Shown here one piece after another: positions 1-61,567 of a DNA stretch of 64,000 nt (positions within the stretch are counted from its first letter, which is position 1; each line of letters begins with the position of its first letter). The notes under the pieces are model-generated. The model was not told the DNA's origin. It searched no databases and saw only the letters and a list, made by a program, of their open reading frames with translations. The position numbers and the translations under genes are program-made. This stretch comes from Bacilli bacterium (GTDB lineage: Bacteria; Bacillota_I; Bacilli_A; RFN20; CAG-826), in contig JAILIP010000006.1 of NCBI GenBank assembly GCA_024695235.1, positions 7,378-71,377 of the forward strand. Direction: 5' to 3'.

Positions 1-834
<834 letters not shown>

Positions 835-1680: not shown

Positions 1681-1681
1681 A

Positions 1682-3184
1682 TTACAAAGATTCCATGAAC
1701 TCTTTAATGATGCCTTTTAACTTCTCAGTTAATTCATCAGAAAGAGCTTTCTTTTCTTTAATTTCCTTAATCACTTCAGAATGTGAGGCGGAAATATATT
1801 CATATAATTTTGTTAATGTTGGTTTAACATTTTCGATTGATAGATTTTCTAAAAATCTATGTTTAGCGGCAAATAGTTCGATAACTTGGCGATCAACTGG
1901 ATAGGTATCGTATTGATTTTGTTTAAGTACTTCCATCAATATTTGACCGTGATTTAAGACCTCTTTAGTCTCTTTATCAAGGTCACTTCCAAATTGTGAG
2001 AACGCTTGAAGTTCACGATAGCTAGCAAGTTCAATCTTTAGTGAGTTTGCAACTTGCTTCATTGCCTTAATTTGAGCGGCACTTCCAACACGGCTAACAG
2101 ATAAGCCTGAATCAATAGCAGGTCTTTGACCAGCATTGAATAAATCAGACATTAAGAATATTTGTCCATCTGTGATAGAAATGACATTTGTTGGAATGTA
2201 GGCTGAAATATCGCCGGCTTGGGTTTCGATGATTGGAAGGGCTGTAATAGAACCACCACCATGTTCATCATCGAGCTTACATGCTCTTTCAAGCAATCTA
2301 CTATGTAGATAGAAGACATCACCAGGATAGGCTTCTCTACCGCTTGGACGCTTGAGTAATAGTGAGAGTGCACGATATGCAACCGCATGCTTACTTAAAT
2401 CGTCAAAGACGATGAGGACATCTTTTCCTTGATTGAGCCATTCTTCTGCCATAGCCATACCTGAATATGGAGCGATGTATAAAAGTGGAGCGAGTTCACT
2501 AGCGGTAGCTGAAACAACTACGGTATAGTCCATAGCACCACTCTTTTTAAGTTTGTCGACAATAGAAGCTACTGTTGAGTTCTTTTGACCGATAGCAACG
2601 TAAATACAATTTACGTTCTCATGTTTTTGGTTGATGATTGTATCAATAGCGATAGCAGTTTTACCTGTTTGACGATCACCGATGATAAGTTCACGTTGAC
2701 CTCTACCAATTGGAATCATGCCATCAATGGCTTTGATGCCTGTTTGAAGAGGTGTATCAACACTTTTACGGTACATAACTCCTGGAGCGATAACTTCAAT
2801 AGGACGAGACGTTTTGCTCTTAACTTCACCGAGTCCATCAAGAGGTTGTCCTAAAGCGTTAACGACTCTACCAAGAAGGGCGTCACCGGTTGGAACTTCA
2901 ACGACACTTTTTGTGCGTTTGACTAGGTCACCTTCTTTAATTTCGGAGTCACTTCCTAAAAGAACACAGCCAACATTTTCTTCTTCTAAGTTCATTACCA
3001 TGCCATAGATGTCATGTGGAAACAATACAAGTTCACCAAGCATTGCTTTATCAAGACCATAAACCAAAGCAACACCATCACCAACGGTGATAACTGTGCC
3101 GACATCGTCTGATTCGACCTTGTGTGAAAAATCTTCTATTTGTTTCTTAATCAAGGCAGATATTTCGGAAGAATTTATTTTCAT
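1682..3184 (-). CDS. atpA: F1Fo ATP synthase subunit alpha
   Basis: 500-aa ORF with Walker A GDRQTGKT and conserved alpha-subunit blocks. Confidence 0.97.
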
Positions 3185-3726
3185 TGATTGCTTCTCCTTT
3201 CATTAAGTTTTGTTTTCATTGTTTCGAGTTTGTATTTGATTGATCCATCAAAAACGTGATCGTGAACGACGACTTTAATACCGCCTATAAGGCGTTCATC
3301 AATACAATTAGATAGTTCGACTGTTTGATTTAGCTTTTTGGATATGGCTTTTTCAACATCACTAATCTGTTTTTCAGTTAATGGAGTTGTTGAGTAGATA
3401 TATCCTTCGCTGATTCCGATATTTTCATTGCATGAAGAGATGAACTCATTAGCAATGTATTTAAAGGAGTTAAAGCGATGTTTTTTGACGAGGAGTTTAA
3501 GGAACGGACTTAATGAATTAAGTTTGAAATCCTTAGTGATTTTATCTATCAAGATAAACTTCTCTTCATCACTTACAAAGTAAGATTTTAAATATGTGTT
3601 TGCCTCTAAGTCAGACTCAAAGAACGCAAGAAGAGATTTAATCGCTTCTTTGTATTCCTTTACCTTACCTTCATCTTTAGCAAGGGAAAGAAGGGCATTC
3701 GAGTATCTAACGTAGAGCGAATCCAT
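3181..3726 (-). CDS. atpH: F1Fo ATP synthase subunit delta (OSCP)
   Basis: 181-aa ORF between atpF and atpA. Overlapping stop/start codons. OSCP-like N-terminus [14 protein letters not shown]. Confidence 0.85.
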
Positions 3727-4316
3727 TATTTATCTTCCTTTTCTAAATCTTTAACGAAGTCTTCGACTAAGCGTTTGTTATCGTCTTCTTTAACTTCGCG
3801 ATTGAGAATCTTTTCTGATGCATCCAAGGCGACCGAAACGATTTCGCGATGGATTTCATCTTTGCTTGCTTCAATTTCTTGAGCGATTTCTTGTTTGGCT
3901 TTTTCTTTTTCTTGTTTGGCTTCTTCTTTGGCTTGAGCGATGATTGCTTCTTTTTGTTTGTTAGCGTCTTCTTGAGCTTTTTCCACGATTAAAACTGCTG
4001 ACTTTTTGCTTTCAGCAACGTTTTTCTCTGCTTCACTTACTAAAGTGCGAGATTTTTCTTCTCTACTCTCTGCAGCTTTAATTTTGCCTTCGACATAGTC
4101 TCCTCTATCCTTGATGAATTTCTTGATTGGTTTATAACCAAGATAGAACGCAGCAAGTAGTAAGACGATAAATGCCAAAAATACAGCGAGGAAGTCCCAG
4201 ACGTTAAACGAAATACGTGAAATAAAGTCTTCGCTATTAAATGGGGCACCATCACAGCCAGTTAAAGTTAATGCAGAGAATAATAATACTAGTATTATTT
4301 TCCCTTTATTTTTCAT
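3726..4316 (-). CDS. atpF: F1Fo ATP synthase subunit b with an N-terminal lipoprotein-type signal (lipobox LTGC)
   Basis: 196-aa ORF. MKNKGKIILVLLFSALTLTGC, then a second hydrophobic helix, then a long charged coiled-coil typical of subunit b. Operon position fits. Confidence 0.85.
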   Translation of the reverse strand: MKNKGKIILVLLFSALTLTGCDGAPFNSEDFISRISFNVWDFLAVFLAFIVLLLAAFYLGYKPIKKFIKDRGDYVEGKIKAAESREEKSRTLVSEAEKNVAESKKSAVLIVEKAQEDANKQKEAIIAQAKEEAKQEKEKAKQEIAQEIEASKDEIHREIVSVALDASEKILNREVKEDDNKRLVEDFVKDLEKEDK

Positions 4317-4352
4317 AAAAAGCCTCCTTAAAAGTTAAACAAGAATTGTGTC

Positions 4353-4598
4353 TTAGTGAACGATTGATCCAGGTAAGACGAAGATGAGTAAAATGGCAAC
4401 AAGTAATGCGTAAATACCACAGGTTTCAACTAATGCTGCACCAATAATCATTGATGAACGTAAGTTTTTACCAGCTTCTGGATTACGTGCCATACCATCG
4501 ATAGCTTTAGTAATGAGCATTGCTTCACCAAGGGATGAACATCCTGAGGAGAAAATAGCAATAGCGGCTGCTAAAGCAATTGCACCGATATCTGTCAT
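4353..4598 (-). CDS. atpE: F1Fo ATP synthase subunit c (proteolipid)
   Basis: 81-aa two-helix hairpin with the loop ARNPEA and the helix-2 carboxylate in LVETCGIY. Confidence 0.93.
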   Translation of the reverse strand: MTDIGAIALAAAIAIFSSGCSSLGEAMLITKAIDGMARNPEAGKNLRSSMIIGAALVETCGIYALLVAILLIFVLPGSIVH

Positions 4599-5369
4599 TT
4601 AGTTAGCCTCCTTTCTTGAAGTTAATTTTGTTTCTTTTTCAACATCAACCTCTGGTTTTTCTTGAGCAACGAATAATGTTGTTAAGAAGACAAACACCAA
4701 GGATTGGATGAATGATGAGAAAACATCAAAGTATGCATGTAGTAATGGAGTGGCGATTGGAACAAAGAAAAGTTCTCCTTGTGTCCCAAAGCCTAAGCCT
4801 GCCCCGAATATCGCAGCAGAGGCATTACCAAGGCCCCAGTTAACTAAAGTTAATAAAACCCATCCCACAAGCGCGTTACCAAAAAGACGCAATGAGAGAG
4901 ATAAAAGTGGAGCCCACATACTTAGTAAGTTAATTGGTAAAAAGAACGGAAATGGTTCAACGTAACGTTTGAAGTATTTCCAGTGATTATATCTAATAGC
5001 GGTAAAGTGAATGAGTAAGAAAGTCACTAATCCTAGTGATAATGGTACTGGTAGATATGCCATTGGGGTTGGTAAACCAGTAATACCAATGATGAAGTTA
5101 GAGAATACAAATAGGATGATTCCTAAAAGGATACCTCCAAAATTTTCAAAACCTTCACCCATATTTTCTTCGACAAAACCATCGAGCTTTTCAACAGCCC
5201 AATCAGCAACTAAAAGAATGCCTTTTGGTCGTTTCGTAGGATCAGCGTGTCTAGCAATCGCACCAACGATAATCATAAAAATGGCAAGAACTAAACATAA
5301 GGCGACACAAACAATCGTCTCTAGATTAGGAGCAAATTTAAGATTTTCTGGTCCGATGAGATTGCCCAT
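4599..5369 (-). CDS. atpB: F1Fo ATP synthase subunit a
   Basis: 256-aa polytopic membrane ORF with the stator arginine motif LSLRLFGN. Confidence 0.92.
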   Translation of the reverse strand: MGNLIGPENLKFAPNLETIVCVALCLVLAIFMIIVGAIARHADPTKRPKGILLVADWAVEKLDGFVEENMGEGFENFGGILLGIILFVFSNFIIGITGLPTPMAYLPVPLSLGLVTFLLIHFTAIRYNHWKYFKRYVEPFPFFLPINLLSMWAPLLSLSLRLFGNALVGWVLLTLVNWGLGNASAAIFGAGLGFGTQGELFFVPIATPLLHAYFDVFSSFIQSLVFVFLTTLFVAQEKPEVDVEKETKLTSRKEAN

Positions 5370-5812
5370 TATTTTTCCTCATCCTCTTCTTTTTCACTTA
5401 TAGTGACAATGGACTTTTTGTTCTTTAGCATCACAGCGATGACAACTATTTGCATAGGCGTGTATGCGATTAAAAGTCCCCAGATTGCATTCTTAAATGC
5501 AGGGACTGGTTCAATCTTGCCTAAAAAACCATATGAGAATATAGCGACTACAAGTAGTCCAACTAGGAACAACGCCATTCTTGAAAAATAGAACAACAAA
5601 AATTGATATGTCTTTAGATTCTTTAATGCAACTTCACTGCCCTTATAAAGGAGATAGATGTTAACAATCTCAATTAGAGAGCCAATTCCAACGCCGATTA
5701 GCCATCCTGGTTGATGCGCTACAAAAAGTGGAATGAGGGCAAGTAAAGCTAGTGCTACTGAGACAATAGCAGCAATAACTAGCATTTTTTGGAGTTCACT
5801 TAGTTTTTTCAT
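5369..5812 (-). CDS. atpI: ATP synthase protein I-like small membrane protein
   Basis: 147-aa ORF with 4 hydrophobic segments. First gene of the atp operon; its stop overlaps the atpB start. Confidence 0.6.
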   Translation of the reverse strand: MKKLSELQKMLVIAAIVSVALALLALIPLFVAHQPGWLIGVGIGSLIEIVNIYLLYKGSEVALKNLKTYQFLLFYFSRMALFLVGLLVVAIFSYGFLGKIEPVPAFKNAIWGLLIAYTPMQIVVIAVMLKNKKSIVTISEKEEDEEK

Positions 5813-10101: not shown

Positions 10102-11184
10102 CTAATTAATTTTACCGAATACTTCTTTTTCTTTTAGATAGATATTCTTGAGATTTGTGTAATACACACTCTTCATGATCATGAAGCGTTTGTGTTCTTC
10201 TTCAGATACTGATTTTAGATACATCTTCGAGAAGATGTCTTCTAGTCTAAAGAATGATTCGTATAGATTGATAATTGCGATGTGGAAGAAATATGCATCG
10301 CGTGAATAGATTAGAAGTGGCGATGAGTGAGCAATCTCACTAGCCATCTCGTATGTCTTTGAATATTGGCTAAGTCCTGCAAGACGTTCCACTCCATCGC
10401 GGAAATTAAATTTGAACATTGGATCATCTTTGTAGTTTGGAATAGCAATTAACCAACCGTATTCAATGAATTTCTTCATATCTTTGCTCTTGAGATCCAA
10501 AGCCTTCATTTCTTCTTTTATCTTTACAAAGATACTATCGACTTTTTCTTTGTCTTGGATAGCTCCACGGAACGCCATAGTGTATTCCATATGTTTTAAA
10601 TATTCTTCAACTAATGGTTTCCCGTATTTAGTGAGCAGCACCAAGATACATTCACTTTCATGGAGTGTTCTCCATGTGGAGAAAGCTTCTGTTTCAAAGC
10701 CTTGTGTCATTAATGAGGTGATAGCCTTACACATGGCAAGTCCTTTATAAAGGATATCCACCACTAATGTTTCGCTTGGTTTTCTTTTAAGTGCTCTATT
10801 AAGAACGCCTAATGTGAAGTTAAGATATGTCTCAAGAGTCGAAATTTGAGGAGCAAACTTGCTAACTTGAGTTGTGTTTTTATATGAAAGATGCTCATTT
10901 GTGAAATATTTATCAAGGGCAATGGATGCTACTTTGCCTAAATATACTTCATCATCTTCTTTAAAATCTGGCTCATTATCTTTGATAAAGCCATATTCAT
11001 TGACGATATATAAAATTAAAACAACAGGGTTTAAAGGAACAACACGACCAAAAACGTTGTTTTCAATTAGCTCTTTAGCGCCTTCATCAGCAACTTCATA
11101 AGCTTGATAAACATAGTCTTTATTTAATTTAGGATTTACGCGTAAGTCTTCATACACGCGATCGAATTGTTCTTTTGAGATCAT
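10102..11184 (-). CDS. Hypothetical cytosolic, apparently all-alpha protein (360 aa)
   Basis: Long intact ORF whose stop lies within a hairpin plus T-run (10084-10103). Its start codon lies 1 nt downstream of the glpK stop codon on the minus strand. No motif I can assign. Confidence 0.6.
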   Translation of the reverse strand: MISKEQFDRVYEDLRVNPKLNKDYVYQAYEVADEGAKELIENNVFGRVVPLNPVVLILYIVNEYGFIKDNEPDFKEDDEVYLGKVASIALDKYFTNEHLSYKNTTQVSKFAPQISTLETYLNFTLGVLNRALKRKPSETLVVDILYKGLAMCKAITSLMTQGFETEAFSTWRTLHESECILVLLTKYGKPLVEEYLKHMEYTMAFRGAIQDKEKVDSIFVKIKEEMKALDLKSKDMKKFIEYGWLIAIPNYKDDPMFKFNFRDGVERLAGLSQYSKTYEMASEIAHSSPLLIYSRDAYFFHIAIINLYESFFRLEDIFSKMYLKSVSEEEHKRFMIMKSVYYTNLKNIYLKEKEVFGKIN

Positions 11185-12834: not shown

Positions 12835-15800
12835 ATGAAATCTCTCTCCAAAAAAATATTAACCCCAATTCTAGCAATTTCTTTAGTTGCTAGTGCCGCT
12901 ACTGCTATTGGCGTAGCTATTACAGCAGCAAATAGAGAAACGACTGAAGCACGTGCTGCATCAGCGCATGATTTGGATACACTTTATTCAGCATGTGAAA
13001 CAGCTGTTACAAACAAAAGTGAATCTAGCCTTTGGAGTGCTGTAAAGACAGCAGCTGCTGATGGATATTCTTCTCTTGGCTATGATGGTTTATACACTGC
13101 ATACGCATCGACAGATGTTCAAAATAACAAGATTGTTGATATGTATTCAAACACATCTTCGTTTTCGACCAGTGATAAATGTGGTAATTATTCTGATGAA
13201 GGTGATTGCTACAATAGAGAACATACAATTCCACAATCTTGGTGGGGTGGCGGAACAAGCGCTCAAGGATGCGATATTTATATCGTTTATCCAACAGACG
13301 GAAAGATTAATGGTATGCGTTCTAATTATGCCTTTGGAGAGGTTAGTTCAGCAACATCTCAATCATCTGGCGGATATTCCAAATTAGGCCCATCAAAATT
13401 GACCACTGGTAATGGATATTCATGGGGTTATAGTGGTACAGTTTTCGAAATAAACGATGAATATAAGGGTGATATGGCTAGAGTATATTTCTACGCAATC
13501 ACAAAATGGCCAAACGTTGACTTTAGTCAAGCAACTGAAGCTACTTCGACTTTTACTGACGCAACGGGTTCATCTCGTACATCATCAAATAATTATGGTT
13601 TAACAAATTATGGTCTAAACTTAATGCTTAAATGGCATAAACAAGATCCTGTAAGCACTTGGGAAGAAACCAGAAATGGGAAAGCTGAATTAAAGCAAGG
13701 TAACAGAAACCCTTATATTGATCACCCAGAATATGTTGAATATCTCTGGGGTGATGGTTTTGATGGTGGTTCATCATCGACAGACCCATCTGCTTCAATT
13801 TCACCATCATCACCCTCTGTTACTGTCGATGACACTGTTGAATTAACAGCTACTTTAAGTAATGTTTCCGATGCCAGCAAAATTACTTGGACATCAGGAA
13901 GCGAAGCAAATGCCACTGTCGTAAAAGGCACCACCACAACAAGTCAGTCAAAAGCTACTGTAACTGGTGTTGCTGCTGGTAGTGCAACAATTAATTGTAA
14001 ATACGATGGCACAACAATAGGTTCAGTTACTGTATCGGTCACTTCTTCAGGCGGAGGGGATACCTCAAATGCTACATTTACTGCAGGAACAGATGTTGGA
14101 TCAAAAACTGGGGCTACAGGTGACCAAGGAGAAGATTCTGTAAGTAAAAACGGGATTACAATGTCGACTACTAACGGTGCATTTGCTGCATCTGGACAAT
14201 ATAGAGTATATAGCGGGGCTAGTTTAACATTTTCTTCCTCGAACAATATCACAGCAATTGAATTTTCTGGAACTGAATCAAAACCATTGTCTGGCCTAGC
14301 AACTCAAACAGGTTCATATTCATACAATAGCAGCACACACGGAGCATCTTGGTCTGGCAGCGCAACATCCGTCACATTTACGGCATCTGCTCAGACAAGA
14401 TTTTCGCCTGTTTCTGTAACTGTTGAATCTTCATCAACAAAAACATTAAGCAGTATTTCATTAAATACCGACAATGTCACAAAAACATTCACTGTTGGTG
14501 ATACATTCTCATCAAATGGGCTTGTTGTTACTGCTAATTATGACAATGGTACTTCCGCGACAGTAACCCCAAGCATAACTTCTCCTGATATGTCTAGCGC
14601 TGGAACTAAAACAGTTACAGTTAGTTATACCGAAGGTAGTGTCACAAAAACAGCTACTTATACAATTACTGTAACTGCAGCTTCTAAGGTTCTCAGTTCA
14701 ATATCTGTAGAAACCGCTCCTTCAAAACTCACATATACTGAAGGGGATTCATTCGATCCAACAGGTTTAGTTATTAATAGGGTTTACACTGTATCCTCTT
14801 ATAACGATACTTATACATACGCAAATCACACATCGGAATTCTCATTCTCACCAGCAACAAATTTAAGCACTAGTGACTCTAGTGTCACTATCACTTATGG
14901 TGGTAAAACATGCACTCAAGCAATTACTGTAAATTCATCTGGCGGATCAACTGATACGAAAACAGATGTTTTATTCGCGAAAGGTTTTGGCGAATACACA
15001 ACTAACAAATATTCAAATGCTGGTACTGACTATTCAGCCGTCGCAAATAGTACTAACGCCACAGGCACAACTTACAAGTTGCAAGTTTTCAATGGATCTA
15101 ATGGGCAAATTAAAGGCAGTGATAACTCTACTGCATCAAACAACTTTAGTGCTAGAAATTCAACAACATATTCTAACTACTATATTTCCAAAGTCGAATT
15201 GACCGTTAAAACAGGAACAATAGATGGCTCATCATCCAGCAGAAGTCTTGTTTATATTGGCTCATCCGCGTTTGCAAACCCAAGCAGTTCTGCTCCATCA
15301 GGAACTTCGATCAATGCCTCCCCTGCATCTTCAAGTCAAACAACACTCACTTGGACAAACACTAACCAAAGCGCCGCTTATTTTATCCTTTACAATTTGA
15401 AAACATCAGGTTCTGCATACTCAGATAGTTCGTCCACAGCATTAAAAATCACATGGACAGAAAAGTCTGGATCAACACCAGTTACCCCAACACTTGAAAG
15501 TATCACACTCGATACAACTAGCGTCGATAAATCATTTGAGGTGGGAGATACATTCTCATACGCAGGTTTAGTTGTCACAGCACATTATAGTGATCTTTCT
15601 ACAGCAACAGTGACACCTACTAGTGTCTCAACTCCAGACATGTCTACTGCAGGACAAAAAACAATCACCGTCACTTACGAAGGAAAGGAAGCTACATACA
15701 CAATTAATGTAACTGATCCTTCTGGTGGCGAAGCCACAGAGGCAAAAGTTAATCTTGTCTTTAGTGAAAAAGGATATGCAAATCAAGCACAACTCACTTC

Positions 15801-16524
15801 ACACAACTTGTACGAAAAAAATAATCAAACAATTACATTCACTTGCGACAAAGGATCAAACACCAACGCTCCAAAATACTACACTACAGGTGCGGCTGGA
15901 AGATTCTACGGAAGCAATACTTTCACAATCACAAGCTCAAAAGCAAATATCACCGGAATTGTTTTATCGTTCAGCTCTGGTGAAAATGAGAACGAAATTA
16001 CAGCTGATAGTGGAACATATTCAAACGGAACCTGGACAGGTACAGCTGTTTCTTCAGTCACTTTCACCATCGGTGGTACAAGTGGCCATCGTAGAATTGC
16101 TTCCATTGGCGTAGATTACTTTGGAGCATCTGAATTTGCTGATAACTTCAACAGCACAATTGGATGTAATTCCCAAGGAACATCTGAACCATCTGGAAAA
16201 AGCAATTGGTCTACATATAAGAGCAACTACAACAATATGTTGTTCACTGAAGATCAAAACACCTTGAAAGGTGCTTCGTTGCTTGAAAATGGTACAAACA
16301 TTGAAAAAGCAATGTATACATACAACTTCATCATTCATAAATATGGCACTTCAAAATACGAAAACTTTATGAATAGAACAATTGTTAATCCTAACGGAAT
16401 GCCGGGCAACTCAATTGTTTCAATGAGTAAAGATAATACTATTGCAATTATTGTCATTATGAGTGTTATCTCAGTAACATCATTAGGTGCTCTAATTGCA
16501 ATAAGAAAACGTAAAGAATACTAA
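12835..16524 (+). CDS. Surface-anchored EndA/NucM (endonuclease I)-family nuclease fusion protein, 1229 aa
   Basis: N-terminal signal. Nuclease motifs CYNREHTIPQSWW, PTDGKINGMRSNYAFGEV, GDMARVYFY, QGNRNPYIDHPE. One Big_2-like domain and three GDxFxxxGLxVTAxY Ig-like repeats. Two copies of an unassigned beta module. C-terminal helix-rich module, a TM helix, and tail RKRKEY. Confidence 0.85.
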   Translation: MKSLSKKILTPILAISLVASAATAIGVAITAANRETTEARAASAHDLDTLYSACETAVTNKSESSLWSAVKTAAADGYSSLGYDGLYTAYASTDVQNNKIVDMYSNTSSFSTSDKCGNYSDEGDCYNREHTIPQSWWGGGTSAQGCDIYIVYPTDGKINGMRSNYAFGEVSSATSQSSGGYSKLGPSKLTTGNGYSWGYSGTVFEINDEYKGDMARVYFYAITKWPNVDFSQATEATSTFTDATGSSRTSSNNYGLTNYGLNLMLKWHKQDPVSTWEETRNGKAELKQGNRNPYIDHPEYVEYLWGDGFDGGSSSTDPSASISPSSPSVTVDDTVELTATLSNVSDASKITWTSGSEANATVVKGTTTTSQSKATVTGVAAGSATINCKYDGTTIGSVTVSVTSSGGGDTSNATFTAGTDVGSKTGATGDQGEDSVSKNGITMSTTNGAFAASGQYRVYSGASLTFSSSNNITAIEFSGTESKPLSGLATQTGSYSYNSSTHGASWSGSATSVTFTASAQTRFSPVSVTVESSSTKTLSSISLNTDNVTKTFTVGDTFSSNGLVVTANYDNGTSATVTPSITSPDMSSAGTKTVTVSYTEGSVTKTATYTITVTAASKVLSSISVETAPSKLTYTEGDSFDPTGLVINRVYTVSSYNDTYTYANHTSEFSFSPATNLSTSDSSVTITYGGKTCTQAITVNSSGGSTDTKTDVLFAKGFGEYTTNKYSNAGTDYSAVANSTNATGTTYKLQVFNGSNGQIKGSDNSTASNNFSARNSTTYSNYYISKVELTVKTGTIDGSSSSRSLVYIGSSAFANPSSSAPSGTSINASPASSSQTTLTWTNTNQSAAYFILYNLKTSGSAYSDSSSTALKITWTEKSGSTPVTPTLESITLDTTSVDKSFEVGDTFSYAGLVVTAHYSDLSTATVTPTSVSTPDMSTAGQKTITVTYEGKEATYTINVTDPSGGEATEAKVNLVFSEKGYANQAQLTSHNLYEKNNQTITFTCDKGSNTNAPKYYTTGAAGRFYGSNTFTITSSKANITGIVLSFSSGENENEITADSGTYSNGTWTGTAVSSVTFTIGGTSGHRRIASIGVDYFGASEFADNFNSTIGCNSQGTSEPSGKSNWSTYKSNYNNMLFTEDQNTLKGASLLENGTNIEKAMYTYNFIIHKYGTSKYENFMNRTIVNPNGMPGNSIVSMSKDNTIAIIVIMSVISVTSLGALIAIRKRKEY

Positions 16525-16540
16525 TTTGATATATAAGTGA

Positions 16541-16569
16541 GGCGTAGCAATTGCTACGTCTTTCTTTTA
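16541..16569 (+). terminator. Intrinsic terminator after nuclease gene 1
   Basis: Stem GGCGTAGC / GCTACGTC with an AATT loop, followed by TTTCTTTT. Confidence 0.75.
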
Positions 16570-16598: not shown

Positions 16599-19500
16599 AT
16601 GTTGTTAAAAAATGTTGTTAAAAAATTATTAGTCGCATCACTATTTGTATCTACTCTTAGTGTTGCAGGTATTGCTATTCATAGCCATGCTAATCCTAAT
16701 GAGGTAGTTAAAGCATCTGCTTTAGCAGATAACTACTGGAAAAGTATCACCGATACAGGTGATGGTGATACCCTCATGTCTGATTTAAATAGTAAGATTT
16801 CCGTTGCTACTACTATTAGCTATGGAGGCCTATGGGATGCATATAAAACATCCGATATCGTTCCAGGTACTACAAATAAGATTTGGGATATGTATGGAGG
16901 ATTCTCTTTTACAGTTACCTCTAACCAATGTGGTTCATATAAAAAAGAGGGTGACTGTTATAATAGAGAACACTCTGTCCCTAAGTCATGGTTCGGTGAA
17001 TCCACCCCTGCTTATTCAGATTTAGTACATCTTGTTCCAACGGATGGAAAGATAAATGGTATGCGTGGCAATCAACCTTTTGGTGAGGTTGCTACAGCTT
17101 CATATACATATAGCTTCGGTGAAAGAAAAGATGGAAATGGTGATGTATATCAAAAAGCAGGGAAAAGCCAATTAGGCACTGCAAAGAATATCAATGGTGT
17201 CACTGCTCCATCTGTGAAGGTTTTCGAGCCAGATGACCAATATAAAGGCGATTTTGCAAGAATTTATTTTTATTTCGCAACTAGATATCAAGGTTGGGCT
17301 ACATCTACTGATAATGGTAAATATATGTTCAACACTTCGTTCCCATATATGACAAACTATGGCTTAGCCCTTATGAGGAAGTGGCACGCTCAAGATCCTG
17401 TATCTCAAAAAGAGATTGATCGTAATGATGCAATCGAATCTCTTCAAGGAAATAGAAACCCATACGTTGATCATCCAGAATGGGCAAACACTATTTTTGG
17501 AAGTAATTATGATGCATCTGGTTCTAATGAACCATCATTAAAGGTTGCTCCAGGTGAAGCTGAGATTGGAGTTGGTGAAACATTAACTCTAACTGCTTCT
17601 CCTAAAAATATTGAAGGCACTAATTATGCATGGAATATAACTGAAGGTAGTGATGTAGTTGAAATCACATCAACAGTATCTAATATGGCAGATATCCACG
17701 CTTTAAAAGAAGGCACTGCTAAAGTTCAATGCACCTATGGTGGATATAATAGAACTGTCACTATCGTAGTAAGCGAAAATGCATCAACTGAAGTTGATCC
17801 ACCAGAGGATGATGGAACAATCGAAATAACTAAAGATAACTTTGTTAGTGCCTATCCATCAGGAGAAGCGACATTCTCACATGCTGCTACTGGTGTAGTA
17901 TTCGGTTACGAAGAAGTTGCTAACTACAACCCAATTCAATTTAGAGCATACGAAGGTGTTTTCTATAATAAGACAACACTCGGACAAATCGTCAGTATTC
18001 ATGTTGAGCAATATAGCACTTACAGTTATTCAAATTTAAGAATTGGTTTTGGAAACACTCCAGTTGATGCGATGAATAATGCTGATACTGAGACATATTC
18101 TCAACCAGCAAGCACCACTGCCATCAGCGGTTCTATGATGCCATATTTCTGCATCAAAAATTCTAGCAGCGCAACACGTATTACAAAGATAATTATTGTC
18201 TACGACAATACATTTGTTAATGAAGACTCTTTAGCATTCGGCAACAAGAACATTACAGTTCGCTCTGCAGAAACTGAAGAATTGTTAGTTGCATCAACTA
18301 GACCAATTACATCATGGACTAGTAGTGACACAACATTAGCTATAGTTGATAATGACGGCACGCTTCATGCTTTAAAAGTTGGTGAAGTTGTTATCACAGC
18401 AAGTGATGGAACACTATTTGATACATGCTCCGTCACCATAATTAAAGGTGATGTTGTTATCACAGGTTTATCGCTCAATGAATCAACTCTTGATTTTGAT
18501 TTAAAAAATGAAACAAAAACTGCTCAACTAGAAGCAATATTTGAAGGCCAAAATGTCTTCGATGAAACTGTTACATGGTCAAGCAATAATGATGCTGTTG
18601 CTACTATTAGTAGCACAGGACTAGTGACTGCTGTTAGTGTTGGTAAAACTGTTATCACTGCTACATCAGATACAGATAACTCATTTAAAGCAAGTTGTGT
18701 TGTGAGTGTTATTAATACTGGCTCTGAAGGTGACTGGGAAGTTAGTTCTGTTGCCTATAGAAGTGCATATTTTGGAAACGGATATGATGAAACAAGCAAT
18801 TCTTCATACACTACAACATGGTATTCAACAAATGCAGAGGAAGATTTCCAATATGAAATCAAATACGGGAACACAAACAGTAAGAGTTGGAATTACGTTA
18901 TGTTTGGGCCAAAAAATACAACATCGACCGGACACGTAAAAACAACTTCTGCAATAGATAAACCGATTGGAAGAGTGGCTATTAACATTAATTCAATTAC
19001 GCAATATGGCACAATTGATTCATTGCAATTGCTAACATCAGTGTCATCAAATTTTGCAAATGCAACAACATATGATTTTGATTATTCGGATGTTGGTGAA
19101 ACAAGTGTATATATCGATGAACCGGAAGCAAATCTCTACTACAAAGTAGAAATCACATGTACATCAAACCAAGGCAGCAAAGGCAAAAACGGAATTGCAA
19201 GTTTAAGCTATGTCAAATTCTTCGATGCTCAAAGAGGCGCTGTAGTTATTAATGAAGCTGAGGAATTTGCCAATGAATTCATGGGTCTCATCACATGTGA
19301 TGAAACTGGTGTAGATAGACCAGTATTCCAAGAAGGATATGGATGGAATTATTTTGCTGAGAGATTTGATGATTTAGATCCGACCGAACAAGCTGTTCTT
19401 CATGATGCCGATCCAATTGAAAATAGTAGTGATATTATTGAACAAGCCATGTATAGATATGAATATATCATTGCTAAATATGGCATATCTTCATATCCAA

Positions 19501-19658
19501 ACTTCATTAATAGAAATCTAACAATAAGTGTTTCGTCAAATACATTGTTTAAGACTATTTCTAGTGAGAACACCACCGCCATTATTGTTATTATTGCATT
19601 AGTAGGTGTAACATCAATTGGCACAGTGTTAACGCTCCGTCGAAAGAAAGAAAATTAA
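16599..19658 (+). CDS. Surface-anchored EndA/NucM-family nuclease fusion protein, 1019 aa
   Basis: Signal peptide. Motifs CYNREHSVPKSWF, PTDGKINGMRGNQPFGEV, GDFARIYFY, QGNRNPYVDHPE. At least three Big_2-like domains. C-terminal module (IIEQAMYRYEYIIAKYG), a TM helix, and tail RRKKEN. Confidence 0.85.
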   Translation: MLLKNVVKKLLVASLFVSTLSVAGIAIHSHANPNEVVKASALADNYWKSITDTGDGDTLMSDLNSKISVATTISYGGLWDAYKTSDIVPGTTNKIWDMYGGFSFTVTSNQCGSYKKEGDCYNREHSVPKSWFGESTPAYSDLVHLVPTDGKINGMRGNQPFGEVATASYTYSFGERKDGNGDVYQKAGKSQLGTAKNINGVTAPSVKVFEPDDQYKGDFARIYFYFATRYQGWATSTDNGKYMFNTSFPYMTNYGLALMRKWHAQDPVSQKEIDRNDAIESLQGNRNPYVDHPEWANTIFGSNYDASGSNEPSLKVAPGEAEIGVGETLTLTASPKNIEGTNYAWNITEGSDVVEITSTVSNMADIHALKEGTAKVQCTYGGYNRTVTIVVSENASTEVDPPEDDGTIEITKDNFVSAYPSGEATFSHAATGVVFGYEEVANYNPIQFRAYEGVFYNKTTLGQIVSIHVEQYSTYSYSNLRIGFGNTPVDAMNNADTETYSQPASTTAISGSMMPYFCIKNSSSATRITKIIIVYDNTFVNEDSLAFGNKNITVRSAETEELLVASTRPITSWTSSDTTLAIVDNDGTLHALKVGEVVITASDGTLFDTCSVTIIKGDVVITGLSLNESTLDFDLKNETKTAQLEAIFEGQNVFDETVTWSSNNDAVATISSTGLVTAVSVGKTVITATSDTDNSFKASCVVSVINTGSEGDWEVSSVAYRSAYFGNGYDETSNSSYTTTWYSTNAEEDFQYEIKYGNTNSKSWNYVMFGPKNTTSTGHVKTTSAIDKPIGRVAININSITQYGTIDSLQLLTSVSSNFANATTYDFDYSDVGETSVYIDEPEANLYYKVEITCTSNQGSKGKNGIASLSYVKFFDAQRGAVVINEAEEFANEFMGLITCDETGVDRPVFQEGYGWNYFAERFDDLDPTEQAVLHDADPIENSSDIIEQAMYRYEYIIAKYGISSYPNFINRNLTISVSSNTLFKTISSENTTAIIVIIALVGVTSIGTVLTLRRKKEN

Positions 19659-19671
19659 TCAAATACAATAA

Positions 19672-19697
19672 AATGCAGTTTATTCTGCATTTTTTTA
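19672..19697 (+). terminator. Intrinsic terminator after nuclease gene 2
   Basis: Stem AAATGCAG / CTGCATTT followed by a T-run. Confidence 0.7.
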
Positions 19698-19796: not shown

Positions 19797-22700
19797 ATGA
19801 AAAAGTGTTCTAAATTATTAATCGCTGCCGGACTTACATTCGCGGTAGCATTTTCCTCGATTGTTTCAATTGCTTCAACCAAAAAAGAAGTTATTGAGAC
19901 GGAAGCATACACGAATGGTGATGCTGCAACATATTACTCCAGCATCGGAAGTAAGACTGGTAGTGAATTATTAAGTGCACTTCAAGGCTTAAACTCAACG
20001 AAACTACAACATAGAATTGGCTATAGCAATATGCCATCATATTTCACTACTACAGATCCTGGCACAAGCAGTGGTGAAGTTTCTGGCTTTTATAGCGGAA
20101 CATCCAAAACATATAGCGGAAATATGAATAAAGAACACGTTTGGCCAGCAAGTAGAACGGTATTAGGAAGAGACAAAGATCCTCTTGAAGATGATATGCA
20201 TATGGTTCGCCCAACAATCACTAATGAAAACGGCAGTAGAGGCAATTCATTCTTTGTTCAAGGAAAGAAAAGCTCAACAGATGGTTGGGATCCTGCAATG
20301 GAGAGTTTTGGCGATGCCACATATCGTGGAGATGCTGCAAGAATTATCTTTTACTGCGTAGCAGCTGATTCACAATTGTCTTTAGTCGATGAAGAAAATG
20401 ATAGCACGTCAAACCACACCATGGGCAAACTATCAGATATGCTCCAATGGAATATCACGTATGCTGTAAACAATAGAGAAAAAGTTAGAAATGAAGCTGT
20501 TGAAGAACTTCAAGGTAATAGAAACCCATTTATTGATCACCCAGAATACGCATGTAGAATTTGGGGAAATACTAACGATACCACAAAAGAAATTTGTTCA
20601 CATGATACATCTGGCACAGCACCTACAAGCTTAACACTCAACGTAACTTCAACATCCTTAGGTTATGGTAGAACTCTTCAACTAAGTGTCACACCAACAC
20701 CTAGCACGGCCAGCGGTGCTGTTTCTTGGAGTGCAAGTAACTCTAAAGTAAGTGTAGATGCTAATGGTTTAGTCACAGCTGGTACAGAATCAGGATATGT
20801 TCAAATTACTGCTACTTCATCTTTAGATAATTCGGTTACTGCAACATGTCAAATCTATGTAACTGAGCCAGATCCTGTAGCGATGACAGGTGTTTCTCAT
20901 AGCAGTGTTTCAGTTGGTTTAAACAAAACAGTTACGTTATCGCCAACAGTTTCACCATCTGATGCATATCCTTTACCTAGCTATACTTATCAAAGCAATA
21001 ACACTTCAATTGCTACCGTTTCTAACGGAGGTGTTGTAACAGGTAAAGCAGGTGGCTCAACCACAATTACAATTACCGCAACGCAAGGATCAATTACTAA
21101 AACATGCAATGTTTCTGTCACTGTCACAACAGAACCTGTTGTTGTTACTGATATGTCTCAATTATCAAATGACGACACAGTAATTGTTAAAACAGATTCA
21201 GGAACTGGCGTTACTGGTTGGAATAATAATAAAGACGCAACAGTTTCTACTACGTCATCCGAATGGAAAGAATTTGTTGTAAAAGATAAAACAAGTAGTG
21301 GCTTTAAACTATATGATTCCACTGCCAGCCAATATATCGCTGCTCCAGGTGGTAATGAATTTAAATATGGCTCAACAGGCGGAACATGTTCAGTCGATTC
21401 TTCTGGACACTTGATGTGTAGCAATAGATATCTTTGTGTTAATGGAACTAACTATCGATTCTATACGGCAATTGGAAGCTACAGACCATTCTATGTATAT
21501 ACAACTGGTGGTTCATCAACACCTGCAAGAACTTTAGAAGCTATTGTTATAAGTGGCACACTTACAAATACTCAATATGCTGGTTTTGCATTCGATCCAA
21601 CTGGTTTAATAGTCACTGCTTGCTATGATGATGAGTCTGATGAGGATGTTACAAATCAAGTAACATGGTCGCCATCAACATTAACTGCTTCCACCACATC
21701 TGTTACTGCCAGCTATGAGGGAGAAAGCGATAGCATCAACATCACTGTTGTTACACCAACCCTAACAGGCATTTCTACAACTGGGCAAACGACTGCATAC
21801 ACTATCGGAGATACATTCTCATATGATGGAATATGTACCGCTACATATGATAATGGCTCTCAAAAAACAGTTACTCCAACAGTTGATTCTAGTGGAGTTA
21901 ACATGAGCGCTGCGGGCACATATACTGTTTCACTATCATATAGCGAAAATGACGTGACAAAGACTACTTCTTACAGTATTACTGTAAGTGAGACTCCATT
22001 TGTCAATTCTATCGAACAATGTTATTCAATGAGTGATGAGCAAACATTAAGCGATACTGTATATGGCTTATATGTCGGTTCATTTGATGGACATAACCCA
22101 GTTATTATGAATGGTGAGTTCGGAATATTGTTATTTACAACAAGTTCAGCAACTCTTCCAAGTTGGACTATAAATGAAACATATGTCAAGGTTACTGCTG
22201 GTAAAATTGATATCTTTAACAATTTATACGAAATTAAAAATTACACCGCTTCCACTGCTTCTAGTAGTGAAGCTCAAGCAAATGTATTACCAGTTTCAAC
22301 TTATTCTGTAACCGGAAATGAAAGTGTAAGTGATTTAACAATCGCTAGTAGATTATGTCTTGTTACAGGTACTGTAAAAACAGCATATAACAAAGGAAAT
22401 GCTACATTGACAGTCAATTCAAAAGATGTTGTAGTCTATGTTAAATCCGATTATCAATCAGCGTTAAGTGGTGTTTTAGGAACAGTAGGTAATCAAGTTA
22501 CATTAAAAGGTTTCACAACATTCTACACATCATTCCAAGTAAATGTCTTTGAAAGTATTGGCGTTATTGAATCATATACCGCTGAGGACTTTGCTGAAGA
22601 CTTGATGAGTATGACAAACACCATTTGTGCTACAAGCACCAATAAGAATTCTGATCTTTCACCTGTGTGGGTAACATTAGAAATGGAAAAATATTCCACT

Positions 22701-22973
22701 CTTCTAGATAGTGAAAGGACCACTCTTAAAGATGTAGTTGCTTCTAATAGTGGTACTGCTATTCAAATTGCTATGGCAAGATACGATTTTATCGTAACTC
22801 ATTACTCATCATGCAATGATTTCATTCAACGTAATCCATCACTTCAAGTGAATAATGGCTTCCTAAAATCTATTGATAATAGCACTACTATCACAATTAT
22901 TGTTGTGCTAAGCACCATTTCATTAACAGCTATCGGTGGATTTGTGTTCTTGAGAAAACGCAAAGAAAACTAA
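19797..22973 (+). CDS. Surface-anchored EndA/NucM-family nuclease fusion protein, 1058 aa
   Basis: Signal peptide. Motifs NKEHVWPAS, ENGSRGNSFF, GDAARIIFY, QGNRNPFIDHPE. Two Big_2-like and two GDxF..G(L/I) Ig-like repeats. C-terminal module (IQIAMARYDFIVTHY), a TM helix, and tail RKRKEN. Confidence 0.85.
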   Translation: MKKCSKLLIAAGLTFAVAFSSIVSIASTKKEVIETEAYTNGDAATYYSSIGSKTGSELLSALQGLNSTKLQHRIGYSNMPSYFTTTDPGTSSGEVSGFYSGTSKTYSGNMNKEHVWPASRTVLGRDKDPLEDDMHMVRPTITNENGSRGNSFFVQGKKSSTDGWDPAMESFGDATYRGDAARIIFYCVAADSQLSLVDEENDSTSNHTMGKLSDMLQWNITYAVNNREKVRNEAVEELQGNRNPFIDHPEYACRIWGNTNDTTKEICSHDTSGTAPTSLTLNVTSTSLGYGRTLQLSVTPTPSTASGAVSWSASNSKVSVDANGLVTAGTESGYVQITATSSLDNSVTATCQIYVTEPDPVAMTGVSHSSVSVGLNKTVTLSPTVSPSDAYPLPSYTYQSNNTSIATVSNGGVVTGKAGGSTTITITATQGSITKTCNVSVTVTTEPVVVTDMSQLSNDDTVIVKTDSGTGVTGWNNNKDATVSTTSSEWKEFVVKDKTSSGFKLYDSTASQYIAAPGGNEFKYGSTGGTCSVDSSGHLMCSNRYLCVNGTNYRFYTAIGSYRPFYVYTTGGSSTPARTLEAIVISGTLTNTQYAGFAFDPTGLIVTACYDDESDEDVTNQVTWSPSTLTASTTSVTASYEGESDSINITVVTPTLTGISTTGQTTAYTIGDTFSYDGICTATYDNGSQKTVTPTVDSSGVNMSAAGTYTVSLSYSENDVTKTTSYSITVSETPFVNSIEQCYSMSDEQTLSDTVYGLYVGSFDGHNPVIMNGEFGILLFTTSSATLPSWTINETYVKVTAGKIDIFNNLYEIKNYTASTASSSEAQANVLPVSTYSVTGNESVSDLTIASRLCLVTGTVKTAYNKGNATLTVNSKDVVVYVKSDYQSALSGVLGTVGNQVTLKGFTTFYTSFQVNVFESIGVIESYTAEDFAEDLMSMTNTICATSTNKNSDLSPVWVTLEMEKYSTLLDSERTTLKDVVASNSGTAIQIAMARYDFIVTHYSSCNDFIQRNPSLQVNNGFLKSIDNSTTITIIVVLSTISLTAIGGFVFLRKRKEN

Positions 22974-22987: not shown

Positions 22988-23019
22988 AAGAAAGGTAGTC
23001 ATTGCTGGCTACCTTTTCA
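22988..23019. terminator. Bidirectional terminator between nuclease gene 3 and pepP
   Basis: An ~11-bp stem (AAAGGTAGTCA / TGGCTACCTTT) flanked by A-rich and T-rich runs, between convergent genes. Confidence 0.7.
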
Positions 23020-24928: not shown

Positions 24929-25765
24929 ATGTTTCGTAAAATCAATTGTCCTAAGTGTAATCAACCATACGATGAGATGAAGCAAAACTGCCCTCATTGT
25001 AATGAGCCTAATGAAAAGGTTCCTCAACATAAGTTTTTCGGAAACAAAGCAACTTTTGTGCCATTCTGGTTAGAAATTGTTTTATTTGCAGTTGGCTGGC
25101 TTGGTTTTCAAGTCCTTGGACTTGTGCTATCACTAGTGATTAAACTTGCTCCATGGGATGTTATCGTCAAAGAAGCAGTATTAACATTTTCTGCCTATGG
25201 ATTATTAGGTGGAATTATGATTGCTATTTCTTGCAAGCATTTAAAAGAACTGGCTTTATCGTTTAAGAAATGGCTTGTACCTGTATCTGCTATTGTCGGA
25301 TTCATCGCTATATTGACTTTCAACATGGTGTATGGATCTATCATTAAACTCATACATTTAGATATCAGTGATAACGCGAACGAAACTTCCATTAATTCGA
25401 TCACTACTGTATATCCATTATTATCTATATTAATTATTGGATTAGTTGGACCATTATGTGAGGAACTCACATATAGAGTTGGTTTTTATTCATTCTTTAG
25501 AAGAATTAACAAGTACTTAGCATATGCCCTAACGATGGTTTTCTTTGCCTTCATTCACTTTGACTTTGAGGCATTTTCTATTGGTGGAGCAACGCTTATC
25601 AATGAATTCCTTAACTTGCCATATTATTTAGCGGCAGCATTTGTCTTCACATTCCTTTATGAAAAGATCGGTTTTGGAGCGTCATTTGCTTGCCATGCGA
25701 CAAATAACTTAGCTAGTGTTCTATCAACATTGCTTCTTTCTAAAACAGCATTCATGATTCTATGA
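24929..25765 (+). CDS. CPBP-family intramembrane glutamic endopeptidase with an N-terminal zinc ribbon
   Basis: CPKC...CPHC ribbon, multiple TM helices, and CPBP motifs EELTYR, FAFIHF, HATNN. Confidence 0.8.
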   Translation: MFRKINCPKCNQPYDEMKQNCPHCNEPNEKVPQHKFFGNKATFVPFWLEIVLFAVGWLGFQVLGLVLSLVIKLAPWDVIVKEAVLTFSAYGLLGGIMIAISCKHLKELALSFKKWLVPVSAIVGFIAILTFNMVYGSIIKLIHLDISDNANETSINSITTVYPLLSILIIGLVGPLCEELTYRVGFYSFFRRINKYLAYALTMVFFAFIHFDFEAFSIGGATLINEFLNLPYYLAAAFVFTFLYEKIGFGASFACHATNNLASVLSTLLLSKTAFMIL

Positions 25766-26631
25766 TGGAAAAGATTCAAAAACTGAACGGCTTTATATTG
25801 AAGATACTTGCCATGGTCTTCATGACTTTGGACCATATTGGTATTTTTATGATGGCAAATCCAGATCCTACAATTGCAAAGGCTGGATTGGTGTTTAGAT
25901 GCATTGGAAGAGTATCATTCCCATTATTTGTTTTGTTGCTCACTGAAGGTATAAGACATTCGAAGAATGTCGGAATGTATATTTTGCGCATTTGCATGTT
26001 AGCAAGTGTTGTGATGATTGCAGAAGTTATCATCTATTATTTCATCGACTCTGCGATTGGAAGCGTCACATCCCCACTTATTGATTTGGCATTATGTGGA
26101 GTAACACTTATGTTATTGCATCGAAAAGATAAACTATCTTTCCTTGCCATTATTCCAATTGCATTTGTTCTTCTAGCGACAGGCATTCAAGTATTTGAAC
26201 TCGCTAAAGAAGTCAGCGTGAAATGGTTCCCGTTCTATATTAGACCTAGCTATTCATTGTTTGCTTTAGCATTATCCATTGGATTCTACTATGCATATGA
26301 TGTTGCACTTAAGATGTTTAAGGGTGCAAATCTTGATGAAGAAACTGCTAAAGAGACATTGTATTTTAGAAGAGTTGTGAATATTTCACAAATCATGGTG
26401 CTTTTTGTTGCAAACGTCATCATCTTTGTTCTCTCATTTATCGATGTGAATAACATCGCAATATTCGATATTTATATCGCATCAGTTGAGACATGGTCTT
26501 TGGCTGCTGCCCTACTAATTCTTTTCTATAATGGTGCACGCGGATATAATGCGAAATGGTTCAAATATGGATGTTATTTATATTTCCCGGTGCATATTGT
26601 TATCATATTTTTGTTATTTACATTATTATAA
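25762..26631 (+). CDS. TraX-family membrane protein
   Basis: 289-aa polytopic ORF. N-terminal LKILAMVFMTLDHIG is typical of TraX. ATGA overlap with the upstream gene. Confidence 0.7.
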   Translation: MMEKIQKLNGFILKILAMVFMTLDHIGIFMMANPDPTIAKAGLVFRCIGRVSFPLFVLLLTEGIRHSKNVGMYILRICMLASVVMIAEVIIYYFIDSAIGSVTSPLIDLALCGVTLMLLHRKDKLSFLAIIPIAFVLLATGIQVFELAKEVSVKWFPFYIRPSYSLFALALSIGFYYAYDVALKMFKGANLDEETAKETLYFRRVVNISQIMVLFVANVIIFVLSFIDVNNIAIFDIYIASVETWSLAAALLILFYNGARGYNAKWFKYGCYLYFPVHIVIIFLLFTLL

Positions 26632-26997: not shown

Positions 26998-27073
26998 GGA
27001 TCATTGGTCTATCGGTTTATGATGCCTCCCTGTCACGGAGGCGAGAGGGGTTCGACTCCCCTATGATCCGCCA
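26998..27073 (+). tRNA. tRNA-Asp(GUC)
   Basis: Acceptor GGATCAT/ATGATCC, anticodon loop CTGTCAC, T-loop GGTTCGACTCC, encoded CCA. Confidence 0.9.
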
Positions 27074-27080
27074 GGAAGCT

Positions 27081-27154
27081 GCAGATGTAGTTCAGTGGTA
27101 GAACATTAGCCTTCCAAGCTAATTATACGGGTTCGATTCCCGCCATCTGCTCCA
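27081..27154 (+). tRNA. tRNA-Gly(UCC)
   Basis: Acceptor GCAGATG/CATCTGC, anticodon loop CTTCCAA, T-loop GGTTCGATTCC, encoded CCA. Confidence 0.9.
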
Positions 27155-28950: not shown

Positions 28951-29041
28951 GGAGCAGTACCCAAGAGGCTCAAGGGGACGGTTTGCTAAACCGTTAGATC
29001 GGGTTACTGGTGCGAGGGTTCGAATCCCTCCTGCTCCGCCA
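28951..29041 (+). tRNA. tRNA-Ser(GCU)
   Basis: Acceptor GGAGCAG/CTGCTCC, anticodon loop TTGCTAA, long variable arm, encoded CCA. Extended -10 TGATATAAT lies upstream. Confidence 0.9.
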
Positions 29042-29080: not shown

Positions 29081-29166
29081 TACATTATGTGCGCTTAACG
29101 CTAATAATTATGCGTGTTGATATACAAAACAAATTATTTTATAATTCTTTCGTATATTTTCGAATA

Positions 29167-38419: not shown

Positions 38420-38561
38420 ATGCTTAATTATACAATTACACGCGAAGATATACAACGTATGTTTTCAAAAATAACTCTCACAAATCAAAGATTTATTTTC
38501 TTATCATCTCAAACGTTAGCGTATACAACTCAAGATAGTGTTATGCTATAATTTTAAGCAC

Positions 38562-57931: not shown

Positions 57932-58016
<85 letters not shown>

Positions 58017-61456: not shown

Positions 61457-61476
61457 TTATCTAAAAAAGCGTATGT

Positions 61477-61560: not shown

Positions 61561-61567
61561 CTCTCAT

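Follow-up and report, generated by a model that had tools for sequence, protein, structure and literature searches.

A C-terminal helical module with a sortase-signal-like anchor, a candidate surface-display cassette of uncultured Bacilli, on three tandem Endonuclease I proteins

We analysed a stretch of 64,000 nucleotides (nt), hereafter the window, from a Bacilli bacterium of the RFN20 lineage (assembly GCA_024695235.1, contig JAILIP010000006.1, positions 7,378 to 71,377 of the forward strand), in which three tandem genes encode secreted proteins with an Endonuclease I domain. All three proteins end in a common module of 131–134 amino acids (aa) that consists of a helical domain, a polar linker, a transmembrane (TM) helix and a basic tail. 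No described domain family corresponds to this module, which is carried by uncultured Bacilli. We consider it moderately probable that the module serves as a permanent stop-transfer cassette for surface display, in which a four-helix pedestal is joined to a TM anchor whose helix and tail probably derive from a sorting signal of the LPXTG type.

Results

Three tandem nucleases share their C-terminus

Pfam places all three proteins in the Endonuclease I family (PF04231, Endonuclease_1), with scores of 184.6, 222.1 and 81.5 bits for genes 1–3 against a cut-off of 25 (E 3e-54, 1e-65 and 1e-22). Their translations contain an (R/K)EH together with a GNRNP(Y/F)(I/V)DHPE stretch, which we take to be the conserved active-site region of this family, and each protein begins with a basic and hydrophobic signal-like segment. 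Protein 1 is identical to P0001 (NCBI MCR5332542.1), which is labelled 'MAG: endonuclease [Bacilli bacterium]' (MAG, metagenome-assembled genome), and protein 3 matches MCR5332544.1; both entries bear this label alone and come from a 113-kb contig.

The middles of the proteins are divergent and contain Ig-like Big_2 or Big_3 repeats. The initial annotation had claimed that the last 131–134 aa of the three nucleases align all the same. This is borne out by whole-protein pairwise BLAST, which returned separate alignments of the tails (E 3e-22, 9e-14 and 2e-13), and by alignment of the tails themselves (16123–16521, 19254–19655 and 22578–22970). They are 36–40% identical to the first tail and share 27 invariant columns, a similarity far beyond chance. 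Of the three parts then described, the (E/D)FA...C...W segment and the helix I(E/Q)xAMxxY(N/E/D)(F/Y)I(I/V)..Y....F(M/I)(N/Q)R are present in every tail. The third part held for the polar stretch, the hydrophobic helix and the basic tails, but the proposed S.(D/E)N(T/S)(T/I) is not a sharp motif: its site is a polar N/S/T-rich stretch with only 1.1–1.4 bits per position across 113 relatives. The layout of the module is a helical domain of about 85–87 aa, a polar linker of 16–20 aa, a TM helix of 22–24 aa and a basic tail of 6 aa (Table 1). At the DNA level the tails are 60–64% identical and the longest exact run is 11 nt, by which recent gene conversion among them was rejected; without long exact runs, they are old paralogues. 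On no other open reading frame (ORF) of the window was the module found.

Directly upstream of the helical module, protein 1 (window 15700–16120, aa ~960–1095), like many relatives, has an unassigned beta-type domain with no Pfam match. This domain ends in a conserved RRIA(A/S)I.V.Y(Y/F) strand in protein 1 and in relatives such as P0015, P0035, P0037, P0065 and P0082.

The module defines a large family without annotation

A profile of the three tails was scored in an exhaustive search against 1.84 billion representative proteins, with clusters counted at the 50% identity level. This search for other proteins ending in the module, which the initial annotation had called for, uncovered a large family of 2565 protein clusters at E ≤ 1e-3, 992 of them at E ≤ 1e-10. 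The module spans the full profile at the extreme C-terminus in all 150 matches listed, among which the carriers are 129–1321 aa long, and 67 of the 68 module ORFs at 58 loci end at most 6 aa from it. In the helical part the consensus reads FA..FL..(I/L)TCD.tG...P......W......Y..L...ek..L..A.AnEsGt.IEqAmARYDYIV.KYG...Y.nFi.R, followed by the linker, the N/S/T-rich stretch, IIVIISLVSVTAIGGYFFI and RKRKEN.

The helical domain has no match in Pfam or NCBIfam (window tails at E ≤ 10; 40 relatives at E ≤ 1), and a sequence-profile search of the PDB with the module gave a best E of only 0.63. The earlier failure to assign the helical module to any family therefore stands: no family in these searches covers it. 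Models of described C-terminal sorting domains gave sub-threshold matches only, the best being Loki-CTERM (13.4 against a cut-off of 19.9), with still weaker matches to Heimdall-CTERM, VPDSG-CTERM, Firmicu-CTERM and PEF-CTERM. A homologue search with tail 1 alone returned no match, and the same search with a 40-sequence profile returned 13 short fragments only, which served as rows of the alignment for AlphaFold.

Four ORFs in the flanks of related loci (L018:3461-5722, L026:8735-10930, L034:9575-12805 and L055:1336-3990) have the same TM helix and RKRKE-type tail and bear a shorter, related helical module, C..Y...L(T)xxQxxLF...AxxRYxAWA..G. An hhalign comparison of this sister module with the main family gave 97.9% probability (E 3e-13, 86 columns), although much of this score stems from the anchor. 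The cassette thus has at least two subfamilies, which the first profile did not unite, and since the sister helical module comes with the same TM helix and tail, the helical domain evolves jointly with its anchor, as one unit that has split into subfamilies. In P0005, the last 29 residues (NTIAIIVIMSVISVTSLGALIAIRKRKEY) are identical to those of protein 1 (window 16435–16521) while the helical domain upstream is clearly divergent; the anchor segment may have been exchanged, or it may be under very strong constraint.

Carriers have signal peptides and varied passengers

Among 58 full-length relatives, Pfam detected Big_2 in 21, Endonuclease_1 and Flg_new in 17 each, Big_3 in 13 and an OB-fold in 4, along with beta-helix and other domains. 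The module is therefore enriched on nucleases yet not specific to them, contrary to what its occurrence on three nucleases might suggest: 41 of the 58 relatives lack Endonuclease_1. This variety bears on a further explanation, in which the helical domain is an accessory of the passenger that binds nucleic acid or another ligand or docks an inhibitor or partner, and in which its adjacency to the TM helix is incidental. The enrichment of nucleic-acid modules (Endonuclease_1 in 17/58, OB-fold in 4/58) is in line with such a role, and conserved charged or polar residues of the domain (C, D, R-Y-D-Y, K and R) could form a binding site. Against it, a nuclease domain is not recognisable in 41 of the 58, and the helical domain never occurs away from TM helix and tail, neither in the 150 matches listed nor in 67 of 68 locus ORFs. 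The sister module also shares TM helix and tail, so that domain and anchor evolve together. We regard the accessory role as decidedly unlikely.

An N-terminal signal-like segment is present in 112 of 120 full-length relatives, and a lipobox-like sequence in only 2. These N-termini imply a type I topology with the passenger outside and the tail inside. The label 'tail anchor', which had been given to the three C-termini, consequently had to be dropped in favour of a type I stop-transfer anchor, because the proteins carry N-terminal signal peptides; signal-like N-termini and extracellular-type passengers set them apart from tail-anchored (TA) proteins in the strict sense. A near-identical signal peptide, MNKLFTKIA..GLAMAIGVGVAVGS, recurs in P0009, P0010, P0012, P0014, P0022 and P0026 as well as in P0029, P0051, P0070, P0118, P0145 and P0149. 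This suggests that conserved N- and C-terminal elements for export and anchoring frame variable passengers.

Genomes and metagenomes were scanned with the single pattern RYDYIV[GA]K, so the resulting loci sample only part of the family. The genome scan yielded 32 loci, all of them in uncultured MAGs that are labelled as Bacilli, Erysipelotrichaceae, Bacillales UBA, Staphylococcaceae, Firmicutes, unclassified 'bacterium' or Candidatus Alloenteromonas; rumen and faeces are the sources wherever one can be read from the name of the isolate or contig. The metagenome scan added 25 loci, with activated sludge named in one record title. Several genomes contribute multiple loci, and tandem arrays occur at L003, L004, L010, L019 and L031. 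The module is also found on the long-read MAG contigs L011 (934 kb) and L032 (1.33 Mb), both about 1 Mb in size and labelled 'Bacilli bacterium'. L011 shares gene order with window positions 1–5400 (ATP synthase genes; protein identity up to 71%), which hints that the organism of the window has a small, Mollicutes-like genome.

The anchor resembles an LPXTG signal without the pentapeptide

All three copies have a hydrophobic TM helix and a short positive tail at the extreme C-terminus, as LPXTG anchors do. The pentapeptide itself is missing. Even the relaxed pattern [LINSV]P.[TAS][GNSAD] had no match in proteins 2 and 3 and matched protein 1 only at 400 or more residues from the end, which confirms the earlier statement that no LPXTG-like motif lies near the C-terminus of any copy, and LPxTG is absent from 202 of 202 family members inspected. 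The LPXTG-anchor model TIGR01167 nevertheless aligns with the module past the pentapeptide. In the window copies its matches run from profile position 7 or 10 to 33, that is, over TM helix and tail; it matches 21 of 40 relatives taken without regard to the linker (E ≤ 1), and the alignments of relatives start at profile position 4–10, past most or all of the pentapeptide. When pre-TM segment, TM helix and tail of 10 relatives picked for an anchor-like linker were each shuffled internally, none of the 10 controls matched at E ≤ 1. A pure effect of composition was rejected on this basis; as shuffling abolishes the match, the likeness is positional and not only compositional. The description of the tails as sortase-signal-like anchors without LPXTG is upheld by these alignments and controls.

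The linker differs among relatives. In many of them it contains (V/I)IG(E/N)N(T/S)NT, which places G-E five residues before the TM helix as in LPXTG-E. Another sequence, R(N/T/D)P(A/T/S)P(I/V)G(G), recurs in many relatives (e.g. in P0010, P0018, P0027, P0028, P0040 and P0064) at a distance of about 45 residues from the C-terminus, right behind the helical domain, and is absent from the three window copies; it might serve as a hinge or as a processing site so far unrecognised.

These features matter for the possibility that the module is a true sorting or processing signal, in which a membrane enzyme (a divergent sortase, a rhomboid/rhombosortase-like or archaeosortase-like protein or similar) would recognise the helical domain, the linker or the TM helix and cleave the protein, release it or re-attach it to a lipid or glycopolymer. 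The family is large and paralogous, with a C-terminal TM helix plus basic tail in many copies per genome, a pattern that reportedly led to the PEP-CTERM/exosortase and GlyGly-CTERM/rhombosortase systems. Both linker motifs are semi-conserved in many relatives, and TM helix and tail are conserved position by position. The main reason for keeping this option is how strongly the TM helix and the helical domain are conserved. On the other hand, there is no short invariant motif by the TM helix, conservation and model confidence are both lowest in the linker, and the three window copies lack the linker motifs. The 673 kb that flank the module genes of related loci contain no conserved candidate for the enzyme, and a folded domain of 85 aa is atypical of a cleaved sorting signal in monoderm bacteria. 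We therefore rate processing by such an enzyme as unlikely.

Predicted fold and sequence constraint

AlphaFold2 modelled the module of protein 2 from a 16-row alignment with a mean predicted local distance difference test score (pLDDT) of 85.5. Besides helices at residues 6–17, 36–44, 48–56 and 66–81, the model has a short hairpin in the region of the invariant Cys and Trp, disorder in the linker (residues 101–107) and one long helix for the TM segment. The globular part alone reached a pLDDT of 90.3 and a predicted template-modelling score (pTM) of 0.83. A Foldseek search of the PDB gave best E values of 2.4 (full module) and 2.9 (globular part) with TM-scores of at most 0.29; Foldseek is weak on small helical domains, and this null result means that no relative is recognisable rather than that the fold is proven to be new.

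TM helix and tail are conserved at about 2 bits per position among the 113 relatives (<60% identical), and the tail is exactly 6 aa long in 59% of relatives, usually ending in E-N/Q/D. Small residues recur in the TM helix at fixed distances from the first basic residue (S at −14, S at −11, T/A at −9/−8 and G/G at −6/−5), giving the pattern S-xx-S-x-TA-x-GG. They lie largely on one helical face, as is typical of helix-helix packing, and this suggests that the TM helix may also pack against another helix, be it a second copy of itself or a partner. A further idea is that the module is the substrate signal of an undiscovered sorting system that replaced sortase in peptidoglycan-poor, uncultured Bacilli; a dedicated membrane enzyme or partner would recognise the lone-Cys domain together with the TM helix and cleave the passenger, attach it covalently (e.g. 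via the Cys) or assemble it at the membrane surface. We think this quite unlikely.

The neighbouring CPBP protease is not a conserved partner

The initial annotation had also pointed, as a speculation, to the CPBP intramembrane protease encoded at 24929–25765. In favour of processing of the three tails by this protease are the location of its gene, on the same strand and 2 kb downstream, and a real Rce1-like domain (E 4e-12). However, genes for an M24 aminopeptidase and a UPF0029 protein on the opposite strand lie between it and gene 3, which has its own terminator-like hairpin. BLAST found no homologue of the protease in the flanks of 57 other loci (65 module genes, 673 kb). CPBP genes are common in Firmicutes genomes, so proximity of this kind is expected by chance. 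The link was rejected as unsupported, and we hold a role of the CPBP protease to be highly improbable.

The CPBP protein has an N-terminal CxxC...CxxC segment resembling a zinc ribbon, and its gene overlaps a TraX-family gene (25762–26631) by 4 bp; the arrangement looks like translational coupling of two genes that have no connection with the nucleases. TraX was likewise rejected as a conserved partner, since it has no homologues in the other loci. Beyond scattered housekeeping genes, no recurrent neighbour was found among the 58 loci.

Features of the window

Table 1. Positions of the nuclease genes, of the parts of their C-terminal modules and of terminator-like hairpins in the window
Feature	Positions	Strand	Details
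Gene 1, secreted Endonuclease I protein, 1229 aa	12835..16524	+	ORF call and Pfam; Endonuclease_1 at aa 73-299, Big_3 repeats, signal-like N-terminus, module at end
Gene 1 juxtamembrane helical domain, aa 1097-1181	16123..16377	+	GASEFADNF...C...W...IEKAMYTYNFIIHKYG...FMNR
Gene 1 polar linker	16378..16437	+	TIVNPNGMPGNSIVSMSKDN
Gene 1 TM helix	16438..16503	+	TIAIIVIMSVISVTSLGALIAI
Gene 1 basic tail	16504..16521	+	RKRKEY; probably cytoplasmic, from the deduced topology
Terminator-like hairpin and T-run 3' of gene 1	16539..16562	+	
Gene 2, secreted Endonuclease I protein, 1019 aa	16599..19658	+	ORF call and Pfam; Endonuclease_1 at aa 57-294, Big_2 repeats, module at end
Gene 2 helical domain, aa 886-972	19254..19514	+	Copy modelled with AlphaFold
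Gene 2 polar linker	19515..19571	+	NLTISVSSNTLFKTISSEN; low AlphaFold2 confidence
Gene 2 TM helix	19572..19637	+	TTAIIVIIALVGVTSIGTVLTL
Gene 2 basic tail	19638..19655	+	RRKKEN
Terminator-like hairpin and T-run 3' of gene 2	19670..19693	+	
Gene 3, secreted Endonuclease I protein, 1058 aa	19797..22973	+	ORF call and Pfam; Endonuclease_1 at aa 100-250, Big_2 and Big_3 repeats, module at end
Gene 3 helical domain, aa 928-1012	22578..22832	+	Second Cys at SSCNDF
Gene 3 polar linker	22833..22880	+	NPSLQVNNGFLKSIDN
Gene 3 TM helix	22881..22952	+	STTITIIVVLSTISLTAIGGFVFL; TIGR01167 15.3 bits over region
Gene 3 basic tail	22953..22970	+	RKRKEN
Terminator-like hairpin 3' of gene 3	22990..23017	+	

The scanned rest of the window is ordinary chromosome with genes for ATP synthase, PFK, glycerol kinase, ProRS, RNase J, a class I Trp/Tyr-type tRNA synthetase, MetK, MgtE and PGI. 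A gene for a DUF5677 protein (10102–11184, minus strand) immediately adjoins the glycerol kinase gene. At 29089–31065, a single ORF of 658 aa joins a membrane domain of the VTT/DedA type to an acyltransferase domain. The protein of 581 aa encoded at 36710–38455 (minus strand) has a sub-threshold EAL match (26.9 bits against a cut-off of 31.3) and may be a degenerate c-di-GMP phosphodiesterase. The window contains 11 tRNA genes, six of which are clustered within 660 bp at 61381–62039; the other sites are 26998–27151, 28951–29038, 38562–38649 and 57932–58013.

Discussion

In our preferred explanation, a permanent stop-transfer cassette, the nucleases would be exported via N-terminal Sec-type signal peptides and the C-terminal helix would act as a stop-transfer anchor whose orientation is held by the basic tail. 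The anchor would thus keep nuclease and Ig-like spacer domains attached to the outside of the membrane, with the helical domain as a compact pedestal at the membrane surface. Here, the tethered Endonuclease I domains could degrade extracellular DNA, probably as a means of nucleotide scavenging. The pentapeptide would have decayed in a lineage in which sortase was lost, leaving the uncleaved signal behind as a permanent anchor. Where sortase is missing, as in srtA mutants of S. aureus, its substrates keep their signal uncleaved and stay in the membrane, and a decayed signal as a permanent anchor is therefore a natural reading. A survey of Bacilli genomes found srtA/B to be lacking in RFN20 and ML615J-28 and predicted two RFN20 families to be peptidoglycan-deficient (PMC10868615). 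Our own check, which covered the 64-kb window and the 673 kb of related loci, found no ORF with a TLxTC signature in a sortase-like context. The earlier suggestion of a relict sorting signal in a wall-reduced lineage is compatible both with the uncultured Bacilli that carry the module and with this reported srtA/B loss in related orders. Architecture and distribution of the module, its predicted fold, the missing LPXTG and the likeness to the LPXTG-anchor profile are results, whereas its topology, its permanence as an anchor, its origin and the role of the helical domain are inferred.

Several points weigh against a permanent anchor of this origin. Retention of the C-terminus by the mature protein is an assumption of this explanation. 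The window copies stay below the TIGR01167 cut-off of 15.9 (no match, 12.6 and 15.3 bits for proteins 1–3), and the cut-off was reached in 9 of 10 relatives (15.9–22.4 bits), a rate that overstates the frequency in the family because these relatives were picked for an anchor-like linker. TIGR01167 is also short and prone to match TM helices with KRK tails, and descent from a sortase signal is unproven. The position-specific conservation of TM helix, tail and 85-aa domain exceeds the needs of a passive anchor, and such strong conservation would equally be expected if a dedicated enzyme or partner recognised the module. Finally, the helical domain has one invariant, usually unpaired Cys (C1111 in protein 1), for which a permanent anchor does not account.

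Guts and rumens abound in orders such as RFN20, RF39 and ML615J-28, none of which has a cultured member. These orders lie along the route that leads from the walled Firmicutes to the wall-less Mollicutes. The loss of sortase in these orders has been read as 'reduced surface protein expression' (PMC10868615). The at least 992 protein clusters that carry the module point, on the contrary, to a large surface proteome that was retained in related uncultured Bacilli. If our explanation is correct, a hidden Markov model (HMM) of the module would be a marker for predicting surface proteins in these genomes, and the module could be a molecular fossil of the transition away from the cell wall. It would also offer a new compact fold for structural study. 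The window would then encode three DNases held at the cell surface, as would suit an organism with a reduced genome that scavenges nucleotides.

Comparison with known systems

The closest known counterpart of the anchor is the LPXTG signal (TIGR01167, PF00746). Both stand at the C-terminus of surface proteins with signal peptides and combine a polar stretch, a TM helix of about 22 aa and a KRKEN-like tail, with an order-dependent profile match from position 4–10 to 33; in many relatives of the module, G-E also stands five residues before the TM helix. Unlike the LPXTG signal, the module has no pentapeptide (3/3 window copies, 202/202 members), and its TM helix is preceded by an 85-aa helical domain, where sortase substrates usually have a Pro/Thr-rich wall-spanning segment. 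The orders related to the carriers are, moreover, reported to be without sortase (PMC10868615).

PEP-CTERM/exosortase and GlyGly-CTERM/rhombosortase likewise place a multi-copy C-terminal TM helix and basic cluster on unrelated passengers. Their signals measure about 25–35 aa, contain a sharp signature motif and occur together with a processing enzyme, whereas the module is about 130 aa long and contains a folded domain, with no sharp motif on the TM side and no enzyme found in the flanks.

The phytoplasma Amp and Spiroplasma ScARP adhesins are type I surface proteins of Mollicutes with a signal peptide, an extracellular passenger, a C-terminal TM helix and a short cytoplasmic tail. This architecture, by which surface proteins are displayed without wall or sortase, resembles that of the module carriers. 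The adhesins are not known to share a conserved juxtamembrane domain family, and no sequence relationship is expected.

Nucleases at the cell surface are known from B. subtilis YhcR, an OB-fold and nuclease protein that is a substrate of the sortase YhcS, from streptococcal LPXTG nucleases and from membrane nucleases of Mycoplasma. The window proteins share with these an extracellular, sugar-nonspecific nuclease at the cell surface, and some module relatives also have an OB-fold. They differ in that the nuclease is here an Endonuclease I (PF04231), anchored by the module in place of LPXTG and sortase, a lipoprotein or an N-terminal anchor.

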